This document shows positions 11,028 to 23,898 of a DNA stretch of 64,000 nucleotides, piece by piece; within the stretch, counting starts at the first letter, position 1, and each line of letters opens with the position of its first letter. Position numbers and translations under genes: made by a program. Source of the DNA: Lysobacteraceae bacterium. GTDB lineage: Bacteria > Pseudomonadota > Gammaproteobacteria > Xanthomonadales > Xanthomonadaceae. The stretch is taken from assembly GCA_044340325.1 (NCBI GenBank), contig JBIITV010000003.1:2734-66733 (forward strand), written 5' to 3'. The notes beneath the pieces were generated by a model. That model ran no database searches. It saw nothing but the letters and a program-made list of their open reading frames with translations, and was not told where the DNA came from.

Positions 11028-11936
11028 TCAGGGAATCTGGCAGTTCTTTTCATTGGGTGAGCAGACATATTCGTAGCGCAGCACGCGCGCGGTGGCGTTG
11101 ATGCCGCCGAGCCTGCGGCCGCTCGATCCCGGACCGGAGTTGCGCATGACGTTGGCGATGAACGCGTCTCCCTGCGCTACATCTCCCGTCTGTGGGCCGC
11201 ACCGAGCGTCGTTGCCCGACACCGCGCGACAGGAGGCCGTCGCGATGACGCGGCCGCCCTGGGTCACTGTGGTCGAGGTGTCCCAATCGTCGGCGACCAC
11301 GCGCACTTCGAAAGGCGCCGAACTCAGCGGAAGGGCGATGTCGTAGCCGCAGCGGTTGGCCGGCGATGTGGTCTGGCAGACCAGACCCGGGCCGCTCAGA
11401 TTCACGGTGAAGTTCTCGAAGATCATGCAGGGATAGCGGGTGTCGCGACACATCGGTGTGCCCGCAGGCCAGAAGGTCGGGCCGCGGCCCGACAGGGCCT
11501 GGTAGAGGGCGTTGATGCTGACCTGGCCCGAGCCTACCGCAGCGCTGACATATTCGCCGTAGGTGAACGCCGACGTCGCACTCGCGCCGTAGCCCATGCT
11601 GCCGAGCAGACTTTCCATCGACGCCCCGCGCACCGAGACCGCGATGTGGTCGAGGCCGGCATTGGTGTTGAGGAAGCCGTCGTGGACGATGGTTGCCGTC
11701 AATTCGCTCTGGTCGCCCTGGGCCCAGTTCGGCCCGTTGACGAACAGGACCGCGTCGTTCGGATCGCTGTAGGGGATCATGGGCGACTGGCCCACGGCGG
11801 CAACGCGCGAGACCTGGATCAGCTGCCAACTGCCGGCCAGCACAGGCAGGGCGAGCGCGAGCAGCAGGGTGGCGCCGGCTGCCACTGCGGCGGGACGACG
11901 CAGGGCCGACGGAAGTCTTGTGTTCAAGAGATTCAT
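11028..11936 (-). CDS. Hypothetical secreted Cys-containing protein
   Basis: MNLLNT...LLLALALPVLA signal peptide; natural codon usage; several Cys (CRDTRYPC, CQTTSPANRC, CSPNEKNC); AAGGA upstream of the start. Confidence 0.75.
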   Translation of the reverse strand: MNLLNTRLPSALRRPAAVAAGATLLLALALPVLAGSWQLIQVSRVAAVGQSPMIPYSDPNDAVLFVNGPNWAQGDQSELTATIVHDGFLNTNAGLDHIAVSVRGASMESLLGSMGYGASATSAFTYGEYVSAAVGSGQVSINALYQALSGRGPTFWPAGTPMCRDTRYPCMIFENFTVNLSGPGLVCQTTSPANRCGYDIALPLSSAPFEVRVVADDWDTSTTVTQGGRVIATASCRAVSGNDARCGPQTGDVAQGDAFIANVMRNSGPGSSGRRLGGINATARVLRYEYVCSPNEKNCQIP

Positions 11937-12022: not shown

Positions 12023-12275
12023 ACGCGACGGGCTCGCATTCCTCAGCGGATTGCGAAGGAAAACAGGATCAGGCGCGAACGCCTGCGGGCCGCATCAGTC
12101 CGGCAATGCCGCAAGCCTTCTCGCGGACAGCGACATTTCCCTGAGATCCACGGCGGCAACATCGAGATACGCGCCATCGTCTGGAACGTTGTAGTCGAGC
12201 AATCCCATCGAGAACGTGTTGGCCCATTGTTCCGGCAAAGCGACCGAGTACAGCACGGCATTGTCCGGACCGACC
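12023..12275. repeat. Left copy of the mosaic direct repeat (blocks A/B/C) shared with 18108-18549
   Basis: A: 12023-12069 vs 18108-18154 (about 42/47). B: 12069-12086 vs 18295-18312 (18/18). C: 12091-12275 vs 18365-18549 (about 181/185). Confidence 0.95.
12095..12275 (-). pseudogene. 3' remnant of the secreted protein gene at 18369-19313
   Basis: Translates to VGPDNAVLYSVALPEQWANTFSMGLLDYNVPDDGAYLDVAAVDLREMSLSARRLAALPD, nearly identical to that gene's C-terminus; no 5' part present. Confidence 0.9.
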
Positions 12276-12369
12276 GATGCAGCTGCGGCCACCCACCATC
12301 AAGACGTCACCACGCAGTGGGTAGCGGCAAAGAAAAAGAGAAGGGCGCTGTAGAGGATGGCAATATTAA

Positions 12370-12384
12370 AGTTATGTTATAACG
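12370..12384. promoter_or_regulatory. Second Zur-type operator, upstream of the TonB-dependent receptor
   Basis: AGTTATG-T-TATAACG, same 7-1-7 pattern as 6508-6522, in an AT-rich patch. Confidence 0.72.
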
Positions 12385-12500
12385 TACTAGTTGACATGCA
12401 AGTATGCCGATCCCGCTTTCCAAGCCCGCCGAAGGAATGCCATCGGCGGTGCCGACCGATTCGATCGCGCAATTCATTCCGTTTCCTGCAAGAGGTCTTG

Positions 12501-14528
12501 ATGCAAAGGGTATTCACGAAATCAGCGTTGAGCATCTGTGTGTTGCTGGTGCCGGCCTCGGTGGTTGCCGCACAGTCCATCGCGCCGGATGATGCGAGCG
12601 CCGAACGCTTGGACACCGTCGTGGTGATCGGCGAGCGCGGCAAGCGCCAGGCCGATGCCGGCCTTGCCGGCTCGCTCGACACCATCGCCCGCAGCGCGCT
12701 GGAGTACGAGCATGTCGACGACACCAGCGAGCTGTTCAACAAGCTGCCGGGCGTGTATCTCTCGCGTTTCAACCAGGGACTGATCAATTCCGATCTATCG
12801 ATCCGTGGGTTTTCCGGTGATGGCGAAACGCCGCATGCCAAGTTGTTGATCGATGGCATTCCATCCAATCTGCACAATGGCTTCAGCGAGATGGATCAAT
12901 TGTTCCCGATCGGTATCGAGTCGATCGCGGTCTTCAAAGGCACCAGCGACCCGGGCGTCGGCTTGTTCAACATTGCCGGCAATTACCGCATCGAAACGCG
13001 CAGCGACACAGCCGCGCGCGAACTCGAGGTTTCGGTCGGCAGTTTCGATACCCGTGAACTGCAGGGCTATGCGGGTTTTGAGCACGGCGCACTGAAGCAC
13101 AGCTATTTCGCAGGCTATCGCGAGGCCGGCGGCTATCGCGACCATACCGATCTGGAGAAGTACGCGCTGTCGGGTCGGTGGTCCTATGCGCTGGGCGATC
13201 GGACAGCGCTGGCGTTGATCGCACGCGCCGCCGGTTATGAAGGCGATGCCCCGGGATATTTGACCAAGGCGGAATCCAGACGCCTACCGCAGTCGTCTGC
13301 TGAGTATGCCAATCAGGATGGTGGAGACAAACGCACGCGCCACGCCAGTCTGCATTTCGATCATCGATTCGGCGACACCATCGCGCTATCGGCGAAAGCC
13401 TATCTGCAGACCTTCGAGCGCGAGCGCTGGGTGCGCTTTTCCGCCGCCTCCGCGCTTCAGAACCGATACGACGATCAGGATCATCGCGGTGTGATCGCTA
13501 CGTTATCGTGGGACATCGACACGCGCTGGCGGCTGGATGGCGGTGTCGATGCCGAGTTCCAGGACATCATCGAGCAGCGGTTCGGAACGATCGGCCAGGT
13601 GCGGGTACGCGATCCTGCGAACGTGTTGCGCAATCGCGCCTATACATTCGACACGAGCGGTGCGTTCGCACGCATCGGTATGCGCGAAGAAGGCCGATAC
13701 GGCTGGAACGTGGCGATACGCGCGGACCGGATCGATGGCGATTACACGCAGTTCAACGCCGCAGGCGTACCGTCGACGCGCGAAATCTACCGCTTCGGCA
13801 CCATTCTGCAGCCAAAGTTCAACGGATTCGTCAATCTTGGCGAAGACCTGCAGCTGTTCGCAAACGCTGGGCGTTCCTTCCAGCATCCGTTCGGTGCGGA
13901 TGCCTATACTGCAGGCGATCGCGGTGCGCGCGATGTCTCCGTCAACGACGGTTGGGAGCTTGGCGCGAAATGGCGCTCGACGGATGCGCTGGAGCTGCGT
14001 CTGTCGTACTGGGAGCAGAAGGCGAAGGACGAATTCGTGGTGGTCGACGGCGTCGTGCAGAATGTCGGCCGCACCGCGCGCGATGGTCTGGACTTCGCAT
14101 TCAACTGGAGTGCCGGCGAGCGCTGGTACGTGTGGGGCAACTTGACTACGGTCGACAGCCGTATCGAGCGCCCGGCGCAGAACCGCGAAGCCTATATCGG
14201 CAATGCATTGCGCGGCGTGCCGACGCGGACCGGCTCGCTGGGTGTGGACTTCGATCCTACAGATGCGATCACCGCACGCGTGCATGTGGACCATCAGGGC
14301 GACTATCACGTCAACGAAGCCAATCTGGGTGGCCGTTTCGGTGACTACACACTCACCCATGCGAGTCTCGACTGGCGTCTCGGCTGGGGGACATTGGGAT
14401 TTCAGGTCCAAAATCTGTTCGATCGCTATTACGAATATGTGTTCGACTTCAGCGAGAACGGCACTGGAACCATCCATTCGCCGGGAGATGGTCGCGCGTT
14501 CGGCGTGTCGTTGAAGCTGGAGTTCTGA
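12501..14528 (+). CDS. TonB-dependent receptor, probably zinc-limitation induced
   Basis: Signal peptide, DTVVVIG TonB-box-like segment, plug (LSIRGF...LLIDGIP), terminal NLFDRYY...SLKLEF with C-terminal Phe. Confidence 0.93.
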   Translation: MQRVFTKSALSICVLLVPASVVAAQSIAPDDASAERLDTVVVIGERGKRQADAGLAGSLDTIARSALEYEHVDDTSELFNKLPGVYLSRFNQGLINSDLSIRGFSGDGETPHAKLLIDGIPSNLHNGFSEMDQLFPIGIESIAVFKGTSDPGVGLFNIAGNYRIETRSDTAARELEVSVGSFDTRELQGYAGFEHGALKHSYFAGYREAGGYRDHTDLEKYALSGRWSYALGDRTALALIARAAGYEGDAPGYLTKAESRRLPQSSAEYANQDGGDKRTRHASLHFDHRFGDTIALSAKAYLQTFERERWVRFSAASALQNRYDDQDHRGVIATLSWDIDTRWRLDGGVDAEFQDIIEQRFGTIGQVRVRDPANVLRNRAYTFDTSGAFARIGMREEGRYGWNVAIRADRIDGDYTQFNAAGVPSTREIYRFGTILQPKFNGFVNLGEDLQLFANAGRSFQHPFGADAYTAGDRGARDVSVNDGWELGAKWRSTDALELRLSYWEQKAKDEFVVVDGVVQNVGRTARDGLDFAFNWSAGERWYVWGNLTTVDSRIERPAQNREAYIGNALRGVPTRTGSLGVDFDPTDAITARVHVDHQGDYHVNEANLGGRFGDYTLTHASLDWRLGWGTLGFQVQNLFDRYYEYVFDFSENGTGTIHSPGDGRAFGVSLKLEF

Positions 14529-14530
14529 TC

Positions 14531-15268
14531 ATGCGCGCAGCGGATTCGAGGCCCATGGTCGTGGTCGAACGGTTGCATTTCGGCTACAGCGATACGATGG
14601 TGCTGGACGGGATCGATCTGCAGGTGATGCCCGGCGAGGTGTTTGCCATTCTCGGCGGCAACGGCGCCGGAAAATCCACGTTGCTGAATTTGATGCTGGG
14701 CCTGCTGCGCCCCAACGACGGCCGGATCTTGATCGGCGGCCGTGATCCGGCAGTCGATCCCGAAGGCGTTCGCCGCGTCCTCGCCTATGTGCCCGAAACG
14801 GCTGCGGTGTACCCGCACCTCAGCGGCATCGAGAACCTGCGTTACTTTCTCGACATCGCCGGTGTCCGTAAAGCCAGGGGCGACATCGTGGCTGCGCTGG
14901 AGACGGTGGGCCTGCAGTCCCAGGCATGGGACCGACGCGCCAGCGATTACTCCAAGGGCATGCGTCAGAAGCTGGTGTTGGCCTTGGCACTTCTGCGCGA
15001 CGTGCAACTGCTGCTGATGGATGAGCCGGGCTCTGGTCTGGATCCCGACGCGGATGCTCAGCTCGCGTCGCTGATCGCGAAAATGCGCGACGAAGGCCGC
15101 AGTGTGGTGCTGGTGAGTCACGATCTGCAAGCGGTGTCTGCGCTGGCGGATCGCTATGTGTTTCTCGCTGCGGGCGGGATCGCGCGTCAGGGGCGGGATC
15201 TGTCCGAGGTCGGCCGCGATCTTGCCGCGCTGCATGCGCTGTATGCGCGGCATGTGGTGCGCGAGTGA
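14531..15268 (+). CDS. ABC transporter ATP-binding protein (ABC-2/exporter class)
   Basis: GGNGAGKST Walker A, YSKGMRQK signature, LLLMDEP Walker B, VSHD. Confidence 0.95.
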   Translation: MRAADSRPMVVVERLHFGYSDTMVLDGIDLQVMPGEVFAILGGNGAGKSTLLNLMLGLLRPNDGRILIGGRDPAVDPEGVRRVLAYVPETAAVYPHLSGIENLRYFLDIAGVRKARGDIVAALETVGLQSQAWDRRASDYSKGMRQKLVLALALLRDVQLLLMDEPGSGLDPDADAQLASLIAKMRDEGRSVVLVSHDLQAVSALADRYVFLAAGGIARQGRDLSEVGRDLAALHALYARHVVRE

Positions 15269-16695
15269 GCATGTCCATGCTCGGACAGGCGCGAATCATC
15301 GCTGCTGCGGAATGCCGACGGCTGTTGCGGGATCGGTCTGTCGTGTATGCATTCGCCATCGTCCTGCTGCTCGGCGTCGTTTCGTTGGTCGTCACATATC
15401 AGCGTCACGCGCAGCTGCAGGCGCAACAAACCGCGTACGCGGCCATTGCCGACACGCAGTGGCAGGCGCAGCCGGACCGTCATCCGCATCGCGTTGTGCA
15501 TTCCGGCGATTTCGTATTCAAGCCGTCGTCGCTTCTGGCATCGTTGGACTGGGGTGTGGAATCGCACACCGGTCGATCGCTGTTTCTGGAAGGGCATCGG
15601 CAGAACACCGCCAACTTCAGTGAAACCGGACAGGCAGGCGCATTGCTGCGTTTCGGTCAACTCACACCTGCGATGGTGATCCTGCAGCTGTTGCCGCTGG
15701 TGCTGATATTCGCAGGGTTCGGCGCAGTCGCCGGCGAACGGCAATCAGGCGTGCTGCGCACCTTGATTGTCTCCGGTGCGCGTGGGCAGTCTGTGCTGGT
15801 CGGAAAGTACTTCGCGCTGCTGCTGCCCGCCGTTGCCGCTCTGTCGCCGCTGCCGGTCGCAATGATGTGGATGGGCGTCTCCGATACCGATCAACTGTTG
15901 CGCGCTGCGTTGCTGTGCGCGACCTATGCGGTGTATCTGGCGTTGTGGTGCGCGATGATTACGGCGATATCGTCGCTGTCGCGAAGTGCATATGCTGCGT
16001 TACTGACATTGCTGTGTCTATGGATGGTGTGGTGTGTGGCGATGCCGCGCGCTGGTCCGACCTTCGCTGCACTGTCGCATCCGGCGCCGAGCCGCGCGGT
16101 CATGGACATGCGCGCCGAGCAGGCGCTGAAGAAGATCGGCGACAGCCACAATCCGGACGATCCGCATTTCGCGGCTTTCCGTGCGCGGACGTTGGCCCGC
16201 TACGGTGTCGAGAGGATCGAGGATCTGCCGGTGAACTACGGCGGATTGCTGATGATCGAGGGCGAACGTCTTACCAGCGAGGTCTATGCACGCGAAGTCG
16301 AAGCGCTGAACGCGCGACATGCAGAACAGAATCGTCTGGTGGATGCATGGGCATGGTTCGCGCCAGCGATGGCGGCCGGTGTGGCTTCACGGTCGCTTGC
16401 GGGCACCGACGCAGATCATTACCGTCATTTCGTGGCAGCAGCCGAGCGCCGGCGCTATGCGCTGGTGCAATCGCTGAACCATCTTCACGCCGAGAAAATC
16501 GCCTACCGCAACGATCGCGAACAGCGCCTGCACGCCGGTCACTGGGATAAGGTGCCGCGCGAGGAATACGCCGCGCCAGGTCTCGGATTCGCCGCGGCAA
16601 GGCTATGGCCGGCATTGTTGGCGCTGCTGCTGTGGTCCGCGCTATCGGGTGCGCTGTTGCTCTGGTGCGGGCAGCGTCTGGCGCGCAGCGCATGA
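15265..16695 (+). CDS. ABC-2-type permease, DUF3526-like
   Basis: Multiple TM helices, AGERQSGVLRTL motif, periplasmic QPDRHPHRVVHSG and SHNPDDPHF. Confidence 0.85.
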   Translation: MSMSMLGQARIIAAAECRRLLRDRSVVYAFAIVLLLGVVSLVVTYQRHAQLQAQQTAYAAIADTQWQAQPDRHPHRVVHSGDFVFKPSSLLASLDWGVESHTGRSLFLEGHRQNTANFSETGQAGALLRFGQLTPAMVILQLLPLVLIFAGFGAVAGERQSGVLRTLIVSGARGQSVLVGKYFALLLPAVAALSPLPVAMMWMGVSDTDQLLRAALLCATYAVYLALWCAMITAISSLSRSAYAALLTLLCLWMVWCVAMPRAGPTFAALSHPAPSRAVMDMRAEQALKKIGDSHNPDDPHFAAFRARTLARYGVERIEDLPVNYGGLLMIEGERLTSEVYAREVEALNARHAEQNRLVDAWAWFAPAMAAGVASRSLAGTDADHYRHFVAAAERRRYALVQSLNHLHAEKIAYRNDREQRLHAGHWDKVPREEYAAPGLGFAAARLWPALLALLLWSALSGALLLWCGQRLARSA

Positions 16696-18080
16696 TTCGG
16701 TCGCCTTCGATGCAGGAGATGATGATCCACGAGCTTCGTCTGCTGTTGCGCTCGCAATGGGTACGGGCGGCATTGCTGGCGACTGCCGTCGCTGTGGCGG
16801 TTTCGCTGTGGCTGGGTTGGGCGGTCGTGGCGAAACGTCAGCTCGATGTCGAGCAGGCGTCTGCGCTGCAGTCCGCACAGCATGACGATTATCTGAGCCG
16901 CTATCCGCAGGGTTTGCCGGATGCAGGCGATGTGGCCTACTACACATTCCACGTGGTTTCCGATTCGCCAGGCCCATTGGCGTGGTTGTCGCTGGGCGAT
17001 CGCGATACGCGACCTGCGGTGCAGCGGATACGGATGCTGGCCCTGCAGTCGCAGATCTACGACGGTGAGGCCAACAATCCGGAGCAGTCCGCTGCGGGCA
17101 CATTCGATTTTGGGTTCGCGGTGGTATTCCTGCTGCCGCTGCTGTGCATCTGCCTGTGCCACGACTTGGCTACCCAGGACCGCGAACATGGGCGCGACAA
17201 GCTGCTGTCGTCGCTGATCGCGTCCACGCGCAGCTACTGGTCGCGGCGGATCGCGGCGCGCTATCTGTTGGCGTGCGCTGCCGCTCTGTTGCCGTTGTTG
17301 CTGTTTTGCGCAGCGACCGGCAATTGGCCGCCGGCGCTGTGGCTGGTTATCCTGGCTGTCGCGCTGTATGCCGCCGTGTGGACGGCGGCCTGCGCATGGA
17401 TCAGTCTGCGGTGGCGGACATCCACATCGATGGCCAATGCAATGGCCATGCTGGCGCTGTGGGTCGCGACCACCATGGCGCTGCCCGCGCTGGCGGGTTC
17501 GCTGGTCGCGCTGTGGTCGCCGATGCCGTCGGGCAGCGAAATCGCGCTGGCGCACCGAAAACTTTTGAACGATGCGTGGGACCTGCCGAAGGAAGCCACA
17601 TTCGAGGCGTTTTTCGACGCGCATCCGGAGTGGCGCGGGACGCCGCCGGTGACCGGAAGATTTCATTGGAAGTGGTACTACGCCTTCCATCATGTGGCCG
17701 ACCTGCACGTCGAACCGAAAGTAGCTGCGGCCGATGCGGCGATGCGCGCCCGCGCCCGTTCCGGCGCGCGTATCGGCCTGCTGTTACCGCCGGTGGCGAT
17801 GCAGCGACTGATGGATGGTTTCGCCGACAACGGCATGGAGCGCCTGGCCGATCAGCGCGCGGCGGTGCGCGCATTCCATGATCGGCTGCGCTTGCATTTC
17901 TATCCGTTCCTGTTCGAAGAGCGACCATTCACTGCGGAGGATTTTGCGGCGATGCCCGTTCCGCATGCCGCGCCGGATCGGATCCGGCACGCACCTTTGT
18001 CGTGGATCGGGCTGATGCTGTTGTTGTCGCTCGTGCTGATCGCACTGTCGCGACAAATCTCGCGGCGATCATTCGCGTGA
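16692..18080 (+). CDS. Second ABC-2-type permease, DUF3526-like
   Basis: FDFGFAVVFLLPLL, DREHGRDKLL, FHWKWYYAFHH; ATGA coupling to the first permease. Confidence 0.85.
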   Translation: MIRSPSMQEMMIHELRLLLRSQWVRAALLATAVAVAVSLWLGWAVVAKRQLDVEQASALQSAQHDDYLSRYPQGLPDAGDVAYYTFHVVSDSPGPLAWLSLGDRDTRPAVQRIRMLALQSQIYDGEANNPEQSAAGTFDFGFAVVFLLPLLCICLCHDLATQDREHGRDKLLSSLIASTRSYWSRRIAARYLLACAAALLPLLLFCAATGNWPPALWLVILAVALYAAVWTAACAWISLRWRTSTSMANAMAMLALWVATTMALPALAGSLVALWSPMPSGSEIALAHRKLLNDAWDLPKEATFEAFFDAHPEWRGTPPVTGRFHWKWYYAFHHVADLHVEPKVAAADAAMRARARSGARIGLLLPPVAMQRLMDGFADNGMERLADQRAAVRAFHDRLRLHFYPFLFEERPFTAEDFAAMPVPHAAPDRIRHAPLSWIGLMLLLSLVLIALSRQISRRSFA

Positions 18081-18107
18081 ATGCGGGTATTGTCGAACCC
18101 GCTGGCC

Positions 18108-18549
18108 ACGCGACGGGCTCCCTTACCTCAGCGGTTTGCGGAGGAAAACAGGATTGGCAGCCTGGTGATGCAGCCGTGGATGGGTGTGTCGGCGAAGCTA
18201 GCGCGTAAGCGATTGCGTCGCCGTGAGCACGTCCGGGCATGTGCTGGATGTACGAACTGAAATACCTCCTTGATGGAGGCATTTCAGCAAACTGTCAGGC
18301 GCGAACGCCTGCTTGCCGGCGCTCCGTACGAAGACGCGCGCAACACCGATGCATCTTGGCGGATCGCATCAGTCCGGCAATGCCGCAAGCCTTTTGGCGG
18401 ACAGCGACATTTCCCTGAGATCCACGGCGGCAACGTCGAGATACGCGCCATCGTCTGGAACGTTGTAGTCGAGCAATCCCATCGAGAACGTATTGGCCCA
18501 TTGTTCCGGCAAAGCGACCGAGTACAGCACGGCATTGTCCGGACCGACC
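18108..18549. repeat. Right copy of the mosaic direct repeat
   Basis: Same A/B/C blocks, order and orientation as 12023-12275, but with 140-bp and 52-bp spacers that are absent or reduced on the left. Confidence 0.95.
18257..18287 (-). terminator. 13-bp stem hairpin downstream of the minus-strand secreted-protein genes
   Basis: Minus strand ctgaaatgcctcc-atcaa-ggaggtatttcag. The single mismatch is a G-U pair only on the minus strand. The U-tract is weak. Confidence 0.5.
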
Positions 18550-19313
18550 ACTTCGAGTACGGAATCGATGCTGCGGTAGAAGCCGTCGCCCGCATAGAAA
18601 GACCCGTTGACGCTCTGGGTCCAGCGCAGCGCGATGCCGGTTGCGCCCGATGGGCTTTGCAGCGGAATGATGGCCACCACGTCATCGATCAGCGCCGGTT
18701 TGGTGCCGTCCGGAATGGCGCGCGATTCGATCACTTCGAGTCTCGCCGGGCCTTCCTTGTCGCGCTGGATCTTGCGCACGCGGTAAATGGCCGATGCGGA
18801 TTTGGCCGTGCCCGGGTCTGTCTGCGTGCTGCGGTTGAAATCCAGCTGCACCACGTCGAACCAGTCGTCCTGGTTGGCGGGCGATACATCCCTGATCTCG
18901 AAACGCAGCGTGTATTCGACGCGGAGGCCCTGCTCTGCGACGGCCGGCATCCATGGAAGCGCGACGATGCCGAAGCCGCTCTTCGGCGCGTACAGCGGAC
19001 TCAGCTGCAGATTCCCGTCGGACGTGTGGCCCGTCAGAATCGGCAGTCGATCCTGGCATTTGCCGGTGCTCGGCTGCCGGGATGTTGTCGCCCGCTGCGC
19101 CGGTGCGATGAGTCCGATCAGGTCCTGATGGCCGGCGAACGTGTAGCTGGCTTTGAACCACAGCGGGGTTGCGGAGGCAGATCCCGAGACAGATGCGGAC
19201 GCAGTGCGGCCATCAAGCGGGTCCAGCTCGACAGGTTCCATCGGGCATGGCGGGAAGGCCAAGGCAGTCGGAGCCCAGGCCAGCAGCAGTGCGAGGGGGA
19301 GATGGCGTTTCAT
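18369..19313 (-). CDS. Hypothetical secreted protein, paralog 1 (mature N-terminus FPPCP)
   Basis: MKRHLPLALLLAWAPTALA signal peptide; beta-rich; roughly 60% identical by eye to 19381-20328. Confidence 0.85.
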   Translation of the reverse strand: MKRHLPLALLLAWAPTALAFPPCPMEPVELDPLDGRTASASVSGSASATPLWFKASYTFAGHQDLIGLIAPAQRATTSRQPSTGKCQDRLPILTGHTSDGNLQLSPLYAPKSGFGIVALPWMPAVAEQGLRVEYTLRFEIRDVSPANQDDWFDVVQLDFNRSTQTDPGTAKSASAIYRVRKIQRDKEGPARLEVIESRAIPDGTKPALIDDVVAIIPLQSPSGATGIALRWTQSVNGSFYAGDGFYRSIDSVLEVVGPDNAVLYSVALPEQWANTFSMGLLDYNVPDDGAYLDVAAVDLREMSLSAKRLAALPD

Positions 19314-19335
19314 GATGAGAATCCTCAAGAATGTG

Positions 19336-19363
19336 GGAATCCTGCAGTAGGTGAAGAGCGCAT
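19336..19363 (-). promoter_or_regulatory. Conserved leader motif of paralog 1 (second copy at 20347-20374)
   Basis: GGAATCCTGCAGT-NN-GTGAAGA-N-CGCAT (plus strand), 25/28 identical, about 20 bp upstream of both paralog starts. Confidence 0.45.
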
Positions 19364-19380
19364 GAGCTGCGCGCGTCGCA

Positions 19381-20328
19381 TCAGTCCGGAAATGCTGGAA
19401 GCGTACTGGCGGACAGCAGCATTTCGCTGAATTCGACAGCGGCATTTCCGGGACGGGCGCTGTCGCCGGGAACGTTGTAGTCGAGCAATCCCATCGAAAA
19501 CGTATTGGCCCATTGTTCCGGCAAGGCGACCGAATACAGCACCGTGCCGCTGGGACCGACCACCTCGAACACGGAATCGATGTTTCGGTAAATGTCACTG
19601 CCCGCCCCGAGAAATCCGTTTTCGGCCTGTGTCCAGCGAAGCGCGATGGGGGTCGCGCCATGTGCGCTCTGCAGCGGAATGACGGCAACGACGCGATCCG
19701 GCAGCGCCGTATCTTGGCCGGAATTCGAGGCGTTGGTGTTTGAGGACATCCGCGATTCGATCACTTCGAGCGTCGCCGGGCCTTCCCTGTTGCGCTGGAT
19801 CTTGCGCACACGGTAAATGGCCGATGCCGATTTGGCCGATAGCGGCCCTGTCTGCGCGCTGCGGTTGAAATCCAGTTGCACCACGTCGAGCCAGTCGCCC
19901 CGCTGGGCCGGCGACGTATCCGCGATCTGGAAGCTCAGCGTGTATTGGAGGCGGAGGCCGTGGCCTGCGACGGCCGGCATCCATGGAAGCACGACGATTC
20001 CGAAGCCGCCTTTGGGCGCATACGCCGGACTGAGCTGCAGAAGGCCGGTGGAGGTGTGGCCCTCTGGAATCGGTAGTGTGCCATCGCACAGGCCGGTGCC
20101 CGGCTGTCGGGGTCCCTGCAATACCAATGAGATCAGGCGGATCATGTCCGGATGACCGACGAGCGTGTAGCCGGCTTTGAACCACAGCGGGGTTGCCGAT
20201 GCAGATGCGGGCGCAATGGGGCCATCAAGCGGGCCCAGTTCGACTGGTTCCAGCGGGCATGGCGGAAAGGCCAGGGCGGCCGGAGCCCAGGCCAGCAGCA
20301 GTGCGAGGGGGAGGTTGCGTTTGAACAT
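19381..20328 (-). CDS. Hypothetical secreted protein, paralog 2
   Basis: MFKRNLPLALLLAWAPAALA-FPPCP; shares IYRVRKIQR and SVALPEQWANTFSMGLLDYNVP with paralog 1. Confidence 0.85.
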   Translation of the reverse strand: MFKRNLPLALLLAWAPAALAFPPCPLEPVELGPLDGPIAPASASATPLWFKAGYTLVGHPDMIRLISLVLQGPRQPGTGLCDGTLPIPEGHTSTGLLQLSPAYAPKGGFGIVVLPWMPAVAGHGLRLQYTLSFQIADTSPAQRGDWLDVVQLDFNRSAQTGPLSAKSASAIYRVRKIQRNREGPATLEVIESRMSSNTNASNSGQDTALPDRVVAVIPLQSAHGATPIALRWTQAENGFLGAGSDIYRNIDSVFEVVGPSGTVLYSVALPEQWANTFSMGLLDYNVPGDSARPGNAAVEFSEMLLSASTLPAFPD

Positions 20329-20483
20329 GAAACTCTCCAAGCGTGAGGAATCCTGCAGTGAGTGAAGACCGCATATCCTGTGCGCGCCCTGTGTATCGCC
20401 GGCCGGAGTCGTCTGGGGCCGGGTGTTGTGGATCGTTTTGTGTGCAGCCAGTCTGGTTAATCGTATTACGGCCTCAAACAGGA

Positions 20484-23144
20484 TCACCGTTCGTCGGCCC
20501 GTAGCGCGCTGTCGCGCCTGACGGCGAGCATCGCGCTTGCCACCGCCTCGGGCATCGGCTCCGCGCGCTCGCGCCACAGCGCATCCACCAGGAGGAGCTG
20601 CTCGTCGGCATCCGCTGGCCGCTGTATCGCGATCGCGGCTTTCGCAAGCTCCAGCCGCAGTGTGCTCAGGATTTGAGCATCGGCTGCGTCCTCGGGTTCC
20701 CCGGGCGGTGCTGACAACTGCTCCACGCATTCATGGTGACGTCCCAGCGCATTGAGCGTTTCCGCCCAGGTGCGTTCGAACTTGCGGACATCGGCGTGGG
20801 CGCGCGACGACACCTTGCGTCCGATCTCCACCGCCTGCGCCAAGTGCGGTTCGGCCAGGTCAGGGCGTTTGCGCAGATCGATGTGGAACTTGGCCATCGT
20901 GTATTCGGCGTTGGCGCGGGCGGTGGAGACCGGGGGCATCTTCGCGAGCTGGATCGCATACCCCTTGCGCATCAGTGCCTCCTGCTCGCGTGGAACATCG
21001 ATCACGCCGACCGACCAGATATAGGCGCTTGCGGCTGCCAGCGATTCATTGCCGTAAAGCGTCTCGGCGGTGCGCCGCCACTGCGCGATCACCTCAATGA
21101 GGGTCGTGCGGTCGGTGCCGCGTTTCTTCAGTTCGCGCGCGATCAGTTGCAGCGCAAGGATCTGCAGCGCTGGATCGTACTTGCCGAGTGCGCTTCGATC
21201 GATGCCCTCGATGACGCGGCGCGCATCGTCGAAGTATCCGGCGCTCAGCAGCGCCTTGCCCAGCTCGATGCGCAGTTTGAGTCTGTCAGCGTCGTCGAGC
21301 TCGGTCGCGTAGCGTTGCCAGGCGTCTTGGAGCGTCCGCGCCGCGCGCAGGAACTCCGATCGCCGGGCATACAGACTCTGCTGTTGATAGGCCACCATCA
21401 CCTTCGTTTGCGGGGTCATGGCAAGCTGTCGCAACTCCGCGATCTGCGCATCCAGTCGCGCGCTGTCCTCGTTCAACACGATGTCATTGGACAAACGCAG
21501 CGACTGCATGCGCCATCGGACGTCAGGGTCGGAAGCGGCGAGGGCTTCGATCGCCGCGGCATGCGCGCGATATGTCGCGTCGCTCTCTCGCATCAGACCT
21601 ATGCCGGCATCGCTTTCCGCCAGCAGCAACGCCAATTCGGCCTGGACATCCTGCTGCCCGTCCAGCGAGTCGAGCCTGCGTTTGCCGCGTTCGATCAATT
21701 CGCGGGCCAATAGCCCGCCTTCGGACGCTTTGCCGGGATCGGCCTGTTCGAAGGTTTCGCGCATGAATGTCGCGACCGCGCGCGCGCGATCGCGATCGAT
21801 ATCCGAGCGCATCCTTGCCGCCTGCGCCGCATCGCGTTGGGTGCGCAATGCCGCCGCTTGCCAGAGCGTGACCGCCAGTGCGATCAGCACGCTGCACAGT
21901 GCGAGTGCCGCGAAGGCCACGCCGACACGATTGCGGCGCACGAATTTCCGCAACCGGTACACCATGTGGTTGCCGGAAATCGATATCGGATGCCCCGACA
22001 GCCACGCGCGCAGATCGCGCGCCAGATCGCCGACTTCCGCGTAGCGTTCGCTGGCGTCCTTGCGCAGACAGTGGGCCACGATCGCATCCAGTTCGCCGCG
22101 CAGCGCCTGCATCGCGACCGCAGGCTGTGCGGCGCCCGGCGACGGTTCGCTCGCGGCGCGTTCCCGCTGCAGGGTATCGCTCATGCGCGGCGGTACGGTG
22201 TCCAGGATCGCACGCTGCAGTTCGGCCGGGTCGCGGTGCGGCCGCGCGAACGGCAGTACGCCGCAGAGCAGTTGATGCAGCAGCGCGCCGAGCGCGTATA
22301 CATCCACCGCCACCGTGGCGCGTTCGCCGCGAAGTTGCTCGGGCGCAGCGGTCATCGGCGAGAAGATCAGGTCCTGCACGGCGGTGTGCCCGCTGTCGGC
22401 CATCGCCGCCAGCGACTTTGCGATTCCGAAGTCCAGCAGCTTGACCGCGCCGTGCGCATCGATCATGACATTGCTGTCTTTGAGGTCGCGGTGGATCACC
22501 AGATTGCGGTGCGCGTACTGCACCGCATCGCACAGCTGCAGAAACAGCGCGATCCGTTCGCGAAGACCGCTGTTGTTGCGCTCGCACCAGGCGCACAGGC
22601 TTTCGCCGGGCACGTACTCCATCGCCAGCCACGGCGTACCGTCCGCCAGCTCGCCGCCGTCGACGATGGTGCAGATGTTGGGATGCCGCAGCTGCGCAAG
22701 GATCCGGCGCTCCTGCGCGAAGCGCTCGCGGCTCTGCGCGTCGATCGCGAAGCGCGGCATGACCTTGATCGCGACCTGCTGCTCGAAATCGCTGCGGCGT
22801 TCGGCCAGATACACCACGCCCATGCCGCCGCGGCCGATCTGGCGCACGAGCCGGAACATGCCCATATCGCTGATATCGCCTACCGGATCGGACATCGCCG
22901 TCGTCACCACGCTGCGCGCGGTGTGCATCCCGTAAGCGTCGTCGATCGCCAGCAGACGTCGCAGCCGCGACGCCAGCGCGGGATGGCTGAGATCGAGTTC
23001 GCGCAATCGCTGCGTCTGTTGCTCGGGTTCGAGCTCGCACAAGGACTCGAACAGTCGCACTTCATCGATCCCGCCTTTCAACATCGCAGCGTCCGACATC
23101 GCGCCTGCCGCAGACGCGATGTCGTCGTCGATCCCTTCACGCAT
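20484..23144 (-). CDS. Hanks-type Ser/Thr protein kinase with TM helix and extracytoplasmic TPR-like region
   Basis: IGRGGMGVVY, VAIK, HRDLKDSN, DFGIAK, APEQ, then a TM segment (VGVAFAALALCSVLIALAVTLWQA) and a helical C-terminus; overlaps the ECF stop. Confidence 0.93.
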   Translation of the reverse strand: MREGIDDDIASAAGAMSDAAMLKGGIDEVRLFESLCELEPEQQTQRLRELDLSHPALASRLRRLLAIDDAYGMHTARSVVTTAMSDPVGDISDMGMFRLVRQIGRGGMGVVYLAERRSDFEQQVAIKVMPRFAIDAQSRERFAQERRILAQLRHPNICTIVDGGELADGTPWLAMEYVPGESLCAWCERNNSGLRERIALFLQLCDAVQYAHRNLVIHRDLKDSNVMIDAHGAVKLLDFGIAKSLAAMADSGHTAVQDLIFSPMTAAPEQLRGERATVAVDVYALGALLHQLLCGVLPFARPHRDPAELQRAILDTVPPRMSDTLQRERAASEPSPGAAQPAVAMQALRGELDAIVAHCLRKDASERYAEVGDLARDLRAWLSGHPISISGNHMVYRLRKFVRRNRVGVAFAALALCSVLIALAVTLWQAAALRTQRDAAQAARMRSDIDRDRARAVATFMRETFEQADPGKASEGGLLARELIERGKRRLDSLDGQQDVQAELALLLAESDAGIGLMRESDATYRAHAAAIEALAASDPDVRWRMQSLRLSNDIVLNEDSARLDAQIAELRQLAMTPQTKVMVAYQQQSLYARRSEFLRAARTLQDAWQRYATELDDADRLKLRIELGKALLSAGYFDDARRVIEGIDRSALGKYDPALQILALQLIARELKKRGTDRTTLIEVIAQWRRTAETLYGNESLAAASAYIWSVGVIDVPREQEALMRKGYAIQLAKMPPVSTARANAEYTMAKFHIDLRKRPDLAEPHLAQAVEIGRKVSSRAHADVRKFERTWAETLNALGRHHECVEQLSAPPGEPEDAADAQILSTLRLELAKAAIAIQRPADADEQLLLVDALWRERAEPMPEAVASAMLAVRRDSALRADER

Positions 23145-23709
23145 GCGAGTCCGGCTCCGCGTCGAAATGATCGATCAACCACGCCCGGGCATAGCGGTAA
23201 TGCCGGATCACGGTCGCGCGGGACAGCCCCATCGCTTCGGCGATCTGTTCGTTGGTGAGGCCGGCGAAGAATTTCAGTTCGACCACCTGCGCGGCCGCTT
23301 CGTGCTGATCGGACAGCACGGTGAGCGCCGCGTCCACCGCGATCCAGTCCACGGTATCGTCCAGCGGTGCCGCCGCTTCGTTCTCGATCTTTTCAAGCCG
23401 CTCGAACGGCAGGCCGCTGCCGCGCTTGTCCGCGCTGCGCCGGCGCAGATAGTCGACCACGATGTTGCGGACGATCCGCGCTGCCAGCGCATAGAAATGC
23501 TCGCGGTTGTTGAACCGGCCCGGAAACTCGTGCATCAGCGCGATGTAGGCGTCCTGGGCCAGGTCCGACGCCTGCAGGGTCAAACCGCTGCGGCCCTGCA
23601 ACTGATAGGCGGCCAGACGCTCAAGCTTGGGCCAGAGCGCGGCGGCCAAAGCTTCCAGCTCGGGCTTCTCCACCGATGCGCGTCGATTGATCAGATCGGT
23701 GAGATTCAT
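23137..23709 (-). CDS. ECF sigma factor of the kinase-associated type (TIGR02999/ECF43-like)
   Basis: LQASDLAQDAY (typical family pattern LQPTALVHEAY), REHFYALAARIVRNIVVDY, VVELKFFAGLTNEQIAEAMGLSRATV HTH. Confidence 0.88.
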   Translation of the reverse strand: MNLTDLINRRASVEKPELEALAAALWPKLERLAAYQLQGRSGLTLQASDLAQDAYIALMHEFPGRFNNREHFYALAARIVRNIVVDYLRRRSADKRGSGLPFERLEKIENEAAAPLDDTVDWIAVDAALTVLSDQHEAAAQVVELKFFAGLTNEQIAEAMGLSRATVIRHYRYARAWLIDHFDAEPDSHA

Positions 23710-23898
23710 AGGACTTGCCCACGCTTGCCACGGGAAAGGGGGGTGCGGTCGCCGGCCGGCCGTTGGATTGAGCGGCCATGCGACATGGAAAACGGACGAA
23801 ACATCTTCCATGCGGGTCCGCTGGCGTCTCCTGGCGCCTGCCGGCCCGCCCTGCCAGTGCCGGGTGAAGCCGGAGCGATGATATCGCGTCGGCCCGCC

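Follow-up and report, generated by a model that had tools for sequence, protein, structure and literature searches.

We describe here a gene cluster in a 64,000-nucleotide stretch of a Lysobacteraceae genome (assembly GCA_044340325.1, contig JBIITV010000003.1, positions 2,734 to 66,733; the whole of this stretch is called the window), in which an extracytoplasmic function (ECF) sigma factor and a receptor Ser/Thr kinase are followed by two tandem genes for secreted proteins. After the leader these proteins begin with FPPCP, and we use this word as the name of the family. The G+C content is about 65% across the window, and all genes of the module lie on the minus strand. A gene for an S46 dipeptidyl-peptidase (23899 to about 26100) stands upstream, and a gap of 189 nt separates it from the sigma gene. 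From there on, the features of the module are as follows:

23137-23709, minus strand: ECF43-type sigma factor of 190 aa (PF07638, TIGR02999)
20484-23144, minus strand: receptor Hanks-type Ser/Thr kinase of 886 aa (Pkinase, 1e-44)
20460-20486, minus strand: candidate sigma-dependent promoter of paralog 1, TGATCC-N17-CGAT, one mismatch away from the motif TGATCC-N17-CGCT discussed below; its -35 box overlaps the kinase stop codon
19381-20328, minus strand: FPPCP-family paralog 1, 315 aa, signal peptide 1-20
19357-19383, minus strand: candidate promoter of paralog 2, TGATGC-N17-CGCT; its -35 box overlaps the stop codon of paralog 1
18369-19313, minus strand: FPPCP-family paralog 2, 314 aa, signal peptide 1-19, predicted concanavalin A (ConA)-like jelly roll

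A sequence-only reading of the window had singled out these genes, and much of its description stands: the sigma and kinase genes do overlap by 8 bp, the two paralogs (66% identical) both start with FPPCP after a Sec-type leader ending in A-x-A, and the two cysteines that it regarded as conserved, C23 and C86, are invariant in the 21 aligned members of the family. That reading had named a lack of conserved linkage as grounds for its refutation, and the loci show clearly the opposite: linkage is absolute across 39 species, and where the three genes are missing they are missing together. Scanning one genome per species gave 26 related loci, all from Lysobacteraceae (Thermomonas and Lysobacter bins, and Lysobacter hankyongensis), and in each of the 24 with enough upstream DNA the order was the same, namely S46 peptidase, sigma factor, kinase and one or two FPPCP genes. 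Identity to the window proteins in these 24 loci is 85-97% for the sigma factor, 61-76% for the kinase and 30-47% for the FPPCP proteins. Among 301 genomes from 64 genera of the family Lysobacteraceae, FPPCP is confined to the window's own GTDB genus, and orthologs of the periplasmic domain of the kinase occur in exactly the same 10 genomes; no ortholog of this sensor domain was found in the 63 other sampled genera, EcfK/PknS themselves not being part of the comparison. Within the genus, 39 of 43 species carry FPPCP, and the remaining four also lack an ortholog of the kinase. The genus is known largely from metagenome bins; a cultured member that carries the module is Lysobacter hankyongensis JCM 18204 (locus L012).

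The flanks of the module point in the same direction. In a genome without it (G307), the gene right after the S46 ortholog encodes an OmpR-type regulator, and this same regulator (96% identical) comes after FPPCP in two module-carrying loci (L023 and L025). Sigma factor, kinase and FPPCP therefore differ between the genomes cleanly, as one three-gene block. At the locus without the module (L048, G307:C27:1-9000), the S46 gene and the OmpR-type regulator are 36 nt apart and a histidine kinase accompanies the regulator, these being the same two-component genes that stand after FPPCP in L023 and L025. The S46 peptidase, which is DPP7/DPP11-like, lies upstream and on the same strand as the sigma gene in every locus with enough upstream DNA, and since it is kept where the module is absent we regard it as a stable neighbour and not as a member. 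It could be argued that the neighbourhood is coincidental, the paralogs being unrelated secreted proteins that lie beside a regulatory pair, and a family without any annotated domain would suit such a view. Nevertheless, co-occurrence and joint absence are perfect in the 301 family genomes and the 43 genus genomes, the order is fixed in 24 loci although the paralogs are 30-50% identical, which far exceeds chance linkage, and the paralogs have a promoter motif in common, so that we consider coincidence very improbable. A broader architecture, in which sigma-kinase pairs are generally followed by a secreted protein, was also considered and rejected: the genome's four other ECF43-like pairs have neither a comparable downstream gene nor an FPPCP-like one.

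The sigma factor matches PF07638 (3.4e-32) and TIGR02999 (141.9 bits against a cut-off of 126.15); its orthologs align from MNLTDL, and an upstream ATG at 23811 is therefore not used as its start. In ECF43 sigma factors the consensus QTTA takes the place of the acidic DAED motif in region 2.2, with Thr at the acceptor position in 88% of the members, and EcfK reads QATE at this motif (PMC13147305); the Thr at this position is phosphorylated in both EcfP and EcfK (PMC13147305, PMC8999054). Region 2.2 of the window's sigma factor is LQASDLAQDAY, and this stretch, with QASD in it, is the same in all 16 orthologs examined. Compared with DAED, the first Asp has given way to Gln, the acceptor is Ser and not Thr, and the motif still ends in an acidic residue, as does the QATE of EcfK. 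The codon of Ser48 (23566-23568) matches the position of the phospho-Thr in EcfK and EcfP, and by homology with these (T51 in EcfK) Ser48 is most likely the phospho-acceptor. A Pfam scan found no anti-sigma domain, the neighbours of the sigma gene being the S46 peptidase upstream and the kinase downstream; no anti-sigma gene is present, and the pair has the hallmarks of kinase-activated ECF43 sigma factors, which supports the comparison that the sequence-only reading drew with such systems. The genome holds four further ECF43-like sigma-kinase pairs, five in all. Its kinase repertoire is rich for a gammaproteobacterium of 4.75 Mb, with about 20 Hanks-type kinases in all (contigs C87, C117, C171 and C179, and about 15 more loci).

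The kinase consists of an N-terminal extension of about 97 aa, a kinase domain (98-368) with intact HRD, DFG and VAIK motifs, a single transmembrane helix in a hydropathy scan (407-428) and a periplasmic part of 455 aa, predicted to form a solenoid (430-886). Its ATG lies 5 nt before the stop of the sigma gene, and because this overlap is kept in 10 of the 12 orthologous loci examined, it suggests translational coupling of the two. An AlphaFold2 model of residues 429-886 (predicted local distance difference test, pLDDT, of 85) is all-helical, with 24 helices arranged as a helical-repeat solenoid, and its best Foldseek matches are the tetratricopeptide repeat (TPR) domains of APPBP2, LGN, Rap and KLC, with template modelling (TM) scores up to 0.61; the Pfam TPR models did not match this part of the protein. 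As modelled, then, the periplasmic part is a TPR-like solenoid, i.e., a superhelix of helical hairpins. It shares this superhelix with peptide-binding TPR receptors (Rap/RRNPP, LGN, APPBP2), but the latter are cytoplasmic while the window's domain is periplasmic and fused to a kinase, and the likeness is one of fold.

The FPPCP proteins themselves stand apart from everything in the databases. A word-indexed search of 5.8 billion proteins returned 29 clusters of the family, and a search of 1.8 billion representatives with a hidden Markov model (HMM) returned 64, beyond which the matches broke off sharply and no distant relatives appeared; no homolog outside the family was found in Pfam, in NCBIfam, in a profile search of the PDB or in the profile search of these representatives. 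By the measure of sequence, the family is a true orphan, and the window's own genome has just the two copies and one fragment. The fold is another matter: the sequence-only reading had called it unknown, and a model now corrects this. AlphaFold2 on the family alignment gives a two-sheet beta sandwich (pLDDT 78, predicted TM score 0.81), predicted to be a jelly roll of the ConA-like lectin/glucanase type, and Foldseek searches of PDB and BFVD with this model find ConA-like folds with a probability of about 1.0 for many members, among them 6d2c, 1vav, 8bjo, 5ocq and legume lectins. The matched proteins include the PL28 ulvan lyase, PL7 alginate lyases, GH16 enzymes and the receptor domains of PE-like toxins. 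The TM scores are only 0.35-0.45 and sequence identity is about 10%. On the model, therefore, the fold class would be known, yet the family is far from every solved structure, and the resemblance is at the level of the fold and is no proof of homology.

What such a jelly roll might do can be narrowed to some extent. No His is invariant in the 21 family members, so the catalytic set of PL7 enzymes (His/Tyr) is not kept; the invariant polar residues are Y134, D153, Y177, R178, R180, K181, E196 and Q233, and the basic strand YRVRKxQ, which is conserved, may point to an anionic ligand. Judging from the modelled fold, the paralogs probably bind glycans or anionic ligands, or may be enzymes, and would act outside the cytoplasm. 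The best conserved part of the family is the signal peptide, LPLALLLAWAPxALA, together with the first five mature residues, which is unusual for Sec leaders; this conserved leader could be a partner-binding peptide, could mark a special export route or could reflect a constraint at the level of RNA.

When the DNA upstream of the FPPCP genes was searched for bipartite words, the motif TGATCC-N17-CGCT emerged. Across the 26 loci, exact copies number 50 on the strand of the genes and three on the other, where the genome-wide rate would predict about 1.5 per strand, and they occupy recurrent places: after the kinase stop, between tandem FPPCP copies, and after the last FPPCP gene before the next one. 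A site directly after the kinase stop is present in about 22 of the 26 loci. The gene that follows FPPCP varies with the species, being an S8 subtilase in seven loci, an orphan secreted protein of 256-300 aa in seven and a secreted protein of 152 aa in three. The subtilase (1e-46; loci L001 and L006-L011) has about 684 aa, a fervidolysin-like prodomain and C-terminal repeats of the form YGRYW...RYANGPC, and its gene comes directly after FPPCP, about 1 kb downstream, preceded by the motif. The orphan family, which carries the motif FRIESEAQFVRDYGD and has no Pfam match, fills the same slot in L003, L012, L015-L017, L020 and L022, again with the promoter motif in front.

A second conserved element upstream of the paralogs was examined as a promoter and rejected. 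The box GCGCA-N5-TGCG(G/C)TCTTC, 45-55 nt before the start codons, lacks a consistent -35 partner; it coincides with the spacer and -10 box of the TGATCC-N17-CGCT site in front of paralog 2 and falls in the 5' untranslated region (UTR) of paralog 1. In its full form it is unique to the two paralogs in their own genome. In a somewhat extended form, GCGC(A)-N5-7-TGCG(G/C)TCTTCAC, it spans 20370-20395 and 19355-19380 and contains a short palindrome, and other species have related boxes. Lying as it does in the predicted 5' UTR of paralog 1, which would be about 125 nt long, it is possibly an RNA element.

Given these observations, we favour, with moderate confidence, a signalling module of three genes: an ECF43-type sigma factor is paired with its cognate transmembrane Hanks kinase and with a secreted ConA-like protein in one or two copies, and the sigma factor would drive a secretome regulon. 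The TPR-like solenoid of the kinase would sense an extracytoplasmic cue, and the kinase would then phosphorylate the sigma factor, most likely at Ser48 of QASD. Once phosphorylated, the sigma factor would direct RNA polymerase to TGATCC-N17-CGCT promoters, and its targets would be each FPPCP paralog, the next secreted-protein gene and unlinked genes for secreted proteins. The motif, its positions and its conservation are matters of observation, and from co-localisation and co-occurrence we infer that it belongs to this sigma factor. Since such promoters precede them, the paralogs would be chiefly an output, and the sole invariant member of a regulon that otherwise varies between species. The sequence-only reading had left it open whether they are the output or a ligand-presenting input; the first half gains a concrete footing from a conserved ECF-type promoter motif before each paralog, and for the second there are only weak hints, weighed further below. 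An envelope or predator cue, which it had cited for related systems, is pure analogy.

Several points weigh against the module as we propose it. Both paralog promoters in the window carry one mismatch each, and one-mismatch sites in the whole window are at chance level (9 against 8 expected). The motif was not found upstream of the sigma gene, and for this reason it cannot be tied to the sigma factor by the autoregulation usual among ECF sigma factors. TGATCC is also the -35 box used by ECF11 RpoE/ChrR sigma factors, whose promoters read TGATCC-N16-CGTA (PMC5507510), and the four other ECF43-like pairs could share promoter specificity. The acceptor is Ser and not the usual Thr, and the Asp that adjoins it could make the sigma factor partly independent of the kinase. 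As for the paralogs, fold matches with TM scores below 0.5 and the lack of an invariant His leave an enzymatic role unsupported.

Some of these points would fit an alternative in which the motif belongs to another sigma factor, ECF11-like or one of the other ECF43 paralogs, and the paralogs are transcribed independently of this sigma factor or by read-through; the latter is possible insofar as nothing like a terminator separates the kinase stop from the -35 box next to it. We consider this alternative distinctly unlikely. ECF11 promoters share the -35 hexamer and the bipartite ECF layout with the motif, but differ in spacer (16 nt against 17) and -10 box (CGTA against CGCT or CGAT) and serve oxidative-stress genes where the window's targets are secreted proteins. 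An origin of the motif in ECF11/ChrR was specifically rejected, as the genome has no ChrR (Cupin_7) and no TGATCC-N16-CGTA site before a sigma gene. Moreover, every species has the motif clustered beside this sigma-kinase pair, and genomes are rich or poor in it according to whether they carry the module.

This last point can be put in numbers. The version TGATCCTGT-N14-CGCT occurs 4-7 times per genome in three module-carrying genomes of the genus, once and not at all in two high-quality genomes of the genus that lack it. In 118 genomes from 63 other genera it averages about 0.3 copies, mostly one coding coincidence, which amounts to an enrichment of about 18-fold in module-carrying genomes. 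The bare 10-base motif, on the other hand, has a high background across the genome (27, 39 and 49 matches at spacers of 16, 17 and 18 nt), and its counts were therefore set aside; our claims about the regulon draw on a position weight matrix (PWM), on versions with a T-rich spacer and on footprints among orthologs. In a PWM scan of the genome the site at 12045-12071 of the window ranks first, followed by about ten further good sites, mostly before signal-peptide proteins without a family match and in one case before a protein with a zincin motif. For one unlinked target, a gene for a 468-aa secreted protein (C155:5752-7155), orthologs are present in eight further species of the genus, and both boxes, 100-180 nt upstream, are kept in nine species and in a paralog while the spacer diverges. 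The paralog lies in tandem with it (C155:2603-7155); the two proteins are 72% identical and without a family match, and each gene has the motif in front. Neither for the unlinked targets nor for the secreted protein encoded at 11028-11936 was an ortholog found in the 26 related loci.

The evolution of the paralogs bears on a different question, namely whether they might serve as the input of the system. The mature protein, perhaps through its invariant N-terminal FPPCP peptide, would dock in the periplasmic TPR groove of the kinase and act as co-receptor, ligand presenter or feedback inhibitor; sigma-dependent transcription would then close a loop, and such a role is compatible with the paralogs being an output. 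There are indeed observations in its favour. Among the targets, FPPCP alone is always linked, and it is absent wherever the kinase is; the sensor domain is similar in fold to TPRs that bind peptides (those of APPBP2, LGN, Rap and KLC); and 12 of the first 24 residues of the FPPCP proteins are at least 90% conserved, against about 19% of the remainder, in a family that is otherwise 30-50% identical. In a mirror-tree comparison, FPPCP distances correlate with those of the sensor domain (partial r 0.61 given S46) more than with those of the kinase domain (0.44) or of the sigma factor (0.32), although this signal may merely come from two fast-evolving proteins that saturate alike. The promoters of the paralogs, however, are of a type common to ordinary secreted enzymes, and the copy number of one or two, the repeated duplication and loss (at least three independent duplications in the FPPCP tree) and a ratio of nonsynonymous to synonymous substitution rates (dN/dS) of 0.61 between the window paralogs are a better fit to an outward-facing effector than to a fixed signalling partner. 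Overall, we see an input role as possible but rather unlikely. A more specific proposal, which we deem unlikely, is that FPPCP is a dedicated periplasmic partner of the kinase, whose N-terminal peptide in the TPR groove would set kinase activity while the fast-evolving jelly-roll body would bind an external glycan, for instance of prey, competitor or phage, and report it to the kinase. If true, the module would be a self-contained sense-and-feedback circuit, and sigma-phosphorylating kinases would have their first described extracytoplasmic co-sensor.

Beyond the second paralog, the window preserves what appears to be an older arrangement of the locus, spread over the following features:

18130-18156, minus strand: decayed downstream promoter element (CAATCC...CGCT; PWM score 19.6), facing the end of a convergent ABC operon
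12095-12275, minus strand: 3' remnant of paralog 2, its last 58 codons and stop, DNA about 98% identical
12045-12071, minus strand: exact TGATCC-N17-CGCT motif, the genome's best-scoring site, after a terminator-like hairpin at 12070-12085
11028-11936, minus strand: secreted Cys-rich protein of 302 aa without a family match, the next predicted target of the sigma factor

The third, partial copy that had been noticed at 12.1 kb is the remnant in this list, real as a piece of DNA (about 98% identical to 18369-18548) though not a gene. Between the two ends lies a cassette of about 6 kb on the plus strand (12276-18107), which encodes a TonB-dependent receptor as well as an ABC transporter whose permeases, two in number, are of the DUF3526 type. 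Direct repeats, at 12023-12275 and 18108-18548, bracket it, each comprising a sigma-type promoter element and the 3' end of paralog 2. The 47-nt element that holds the site at 12045-12071 thus recurs, like the paralog fragment, at either end of the cassette; its right-hand copy around 18130-18156 (repeat D5) is 89% identical to 12023-12069, with the promoter decayed to CAATCC. Because promoter element and fragment are repeated at its flanks, the cassette seems to have entered between paralog 2 and the target gene at 11028-11936, and from the sequence it looks like an insertion, or an integration by a single crossover, at this point. The fragment at 12095-12275 marks the original junction before the cassette entered.

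It is helpful to set the module beside the systems that it most resembles. EcfK/PknS of Xanthomonas citri, an ECF43 sigma factor and Hanks receptor kinase that control a type VI secretion system (T6SS), come from the same bacterial order and share with our pair a TIGR02999/PF07638 sigma factor, the lack of an anti-sigma gene, a kinase with an N-terminal extension, one transmembrane helix and a periplasmic TPR-type domain, and a region 2.2 in which the phospho-acceptor position is followed by an acidic residue (QATE in EcfK, QASD here). They differ in that the acceptor in the window is Ser instead of Thr, in that the module adjoins a secreted ConA-like family and is not inside a T6SS cluster, and in that its predicted regulon consists of secreted proteins and not of a secretion machine. 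With EcfP/PknT of Vibrio parahaemolyticus, an ECF43 system of the polymyxin response, the likeness would lie in the logic of activation, in which the sigma factor is inactive until the adjacent kinase phosphorylates region 2.2; EcfP has other targets and reads STTA, without an acidic residue, whereas the QASD of the window makes some basal activity conceivable.

The type of sigma factor and kinase is therefore known, and what is new is the genus-restricted secreted ConA-like partner, the candidate promoter code and the predicted secretome regulon. In the literature we found no description of the FPPCP family, of the TGATCC-N17-CGCT motif or of an ECF-kinase regulon in Lysobacter or Thermomonas. 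To our knowledge, EcfP and EcfK are the only kinase-activated ECF sigma factors to have been studied in depth, and for both of them the signal of the kinase and its mode of sensing are unknown. Against this background, QASD offers a natural Ser/Asp variant of the phospho-switch, and TGATCC-N17-CGCT, as a candidate promoter code, makes the regulon predictable throughout the genus and testable with reporters. The invariably linked FPPCP protein is the obvious first candidate for the main effector of the system or for the missing periplasmic partner of the TPR sensor. Finally, the composition of the predicted regulon, with its orphan secreted proteins, S8 protease and zincin-like protein, suggests an inducible programme of extracellular attack or scavenging in a poorly studied environmental genus.

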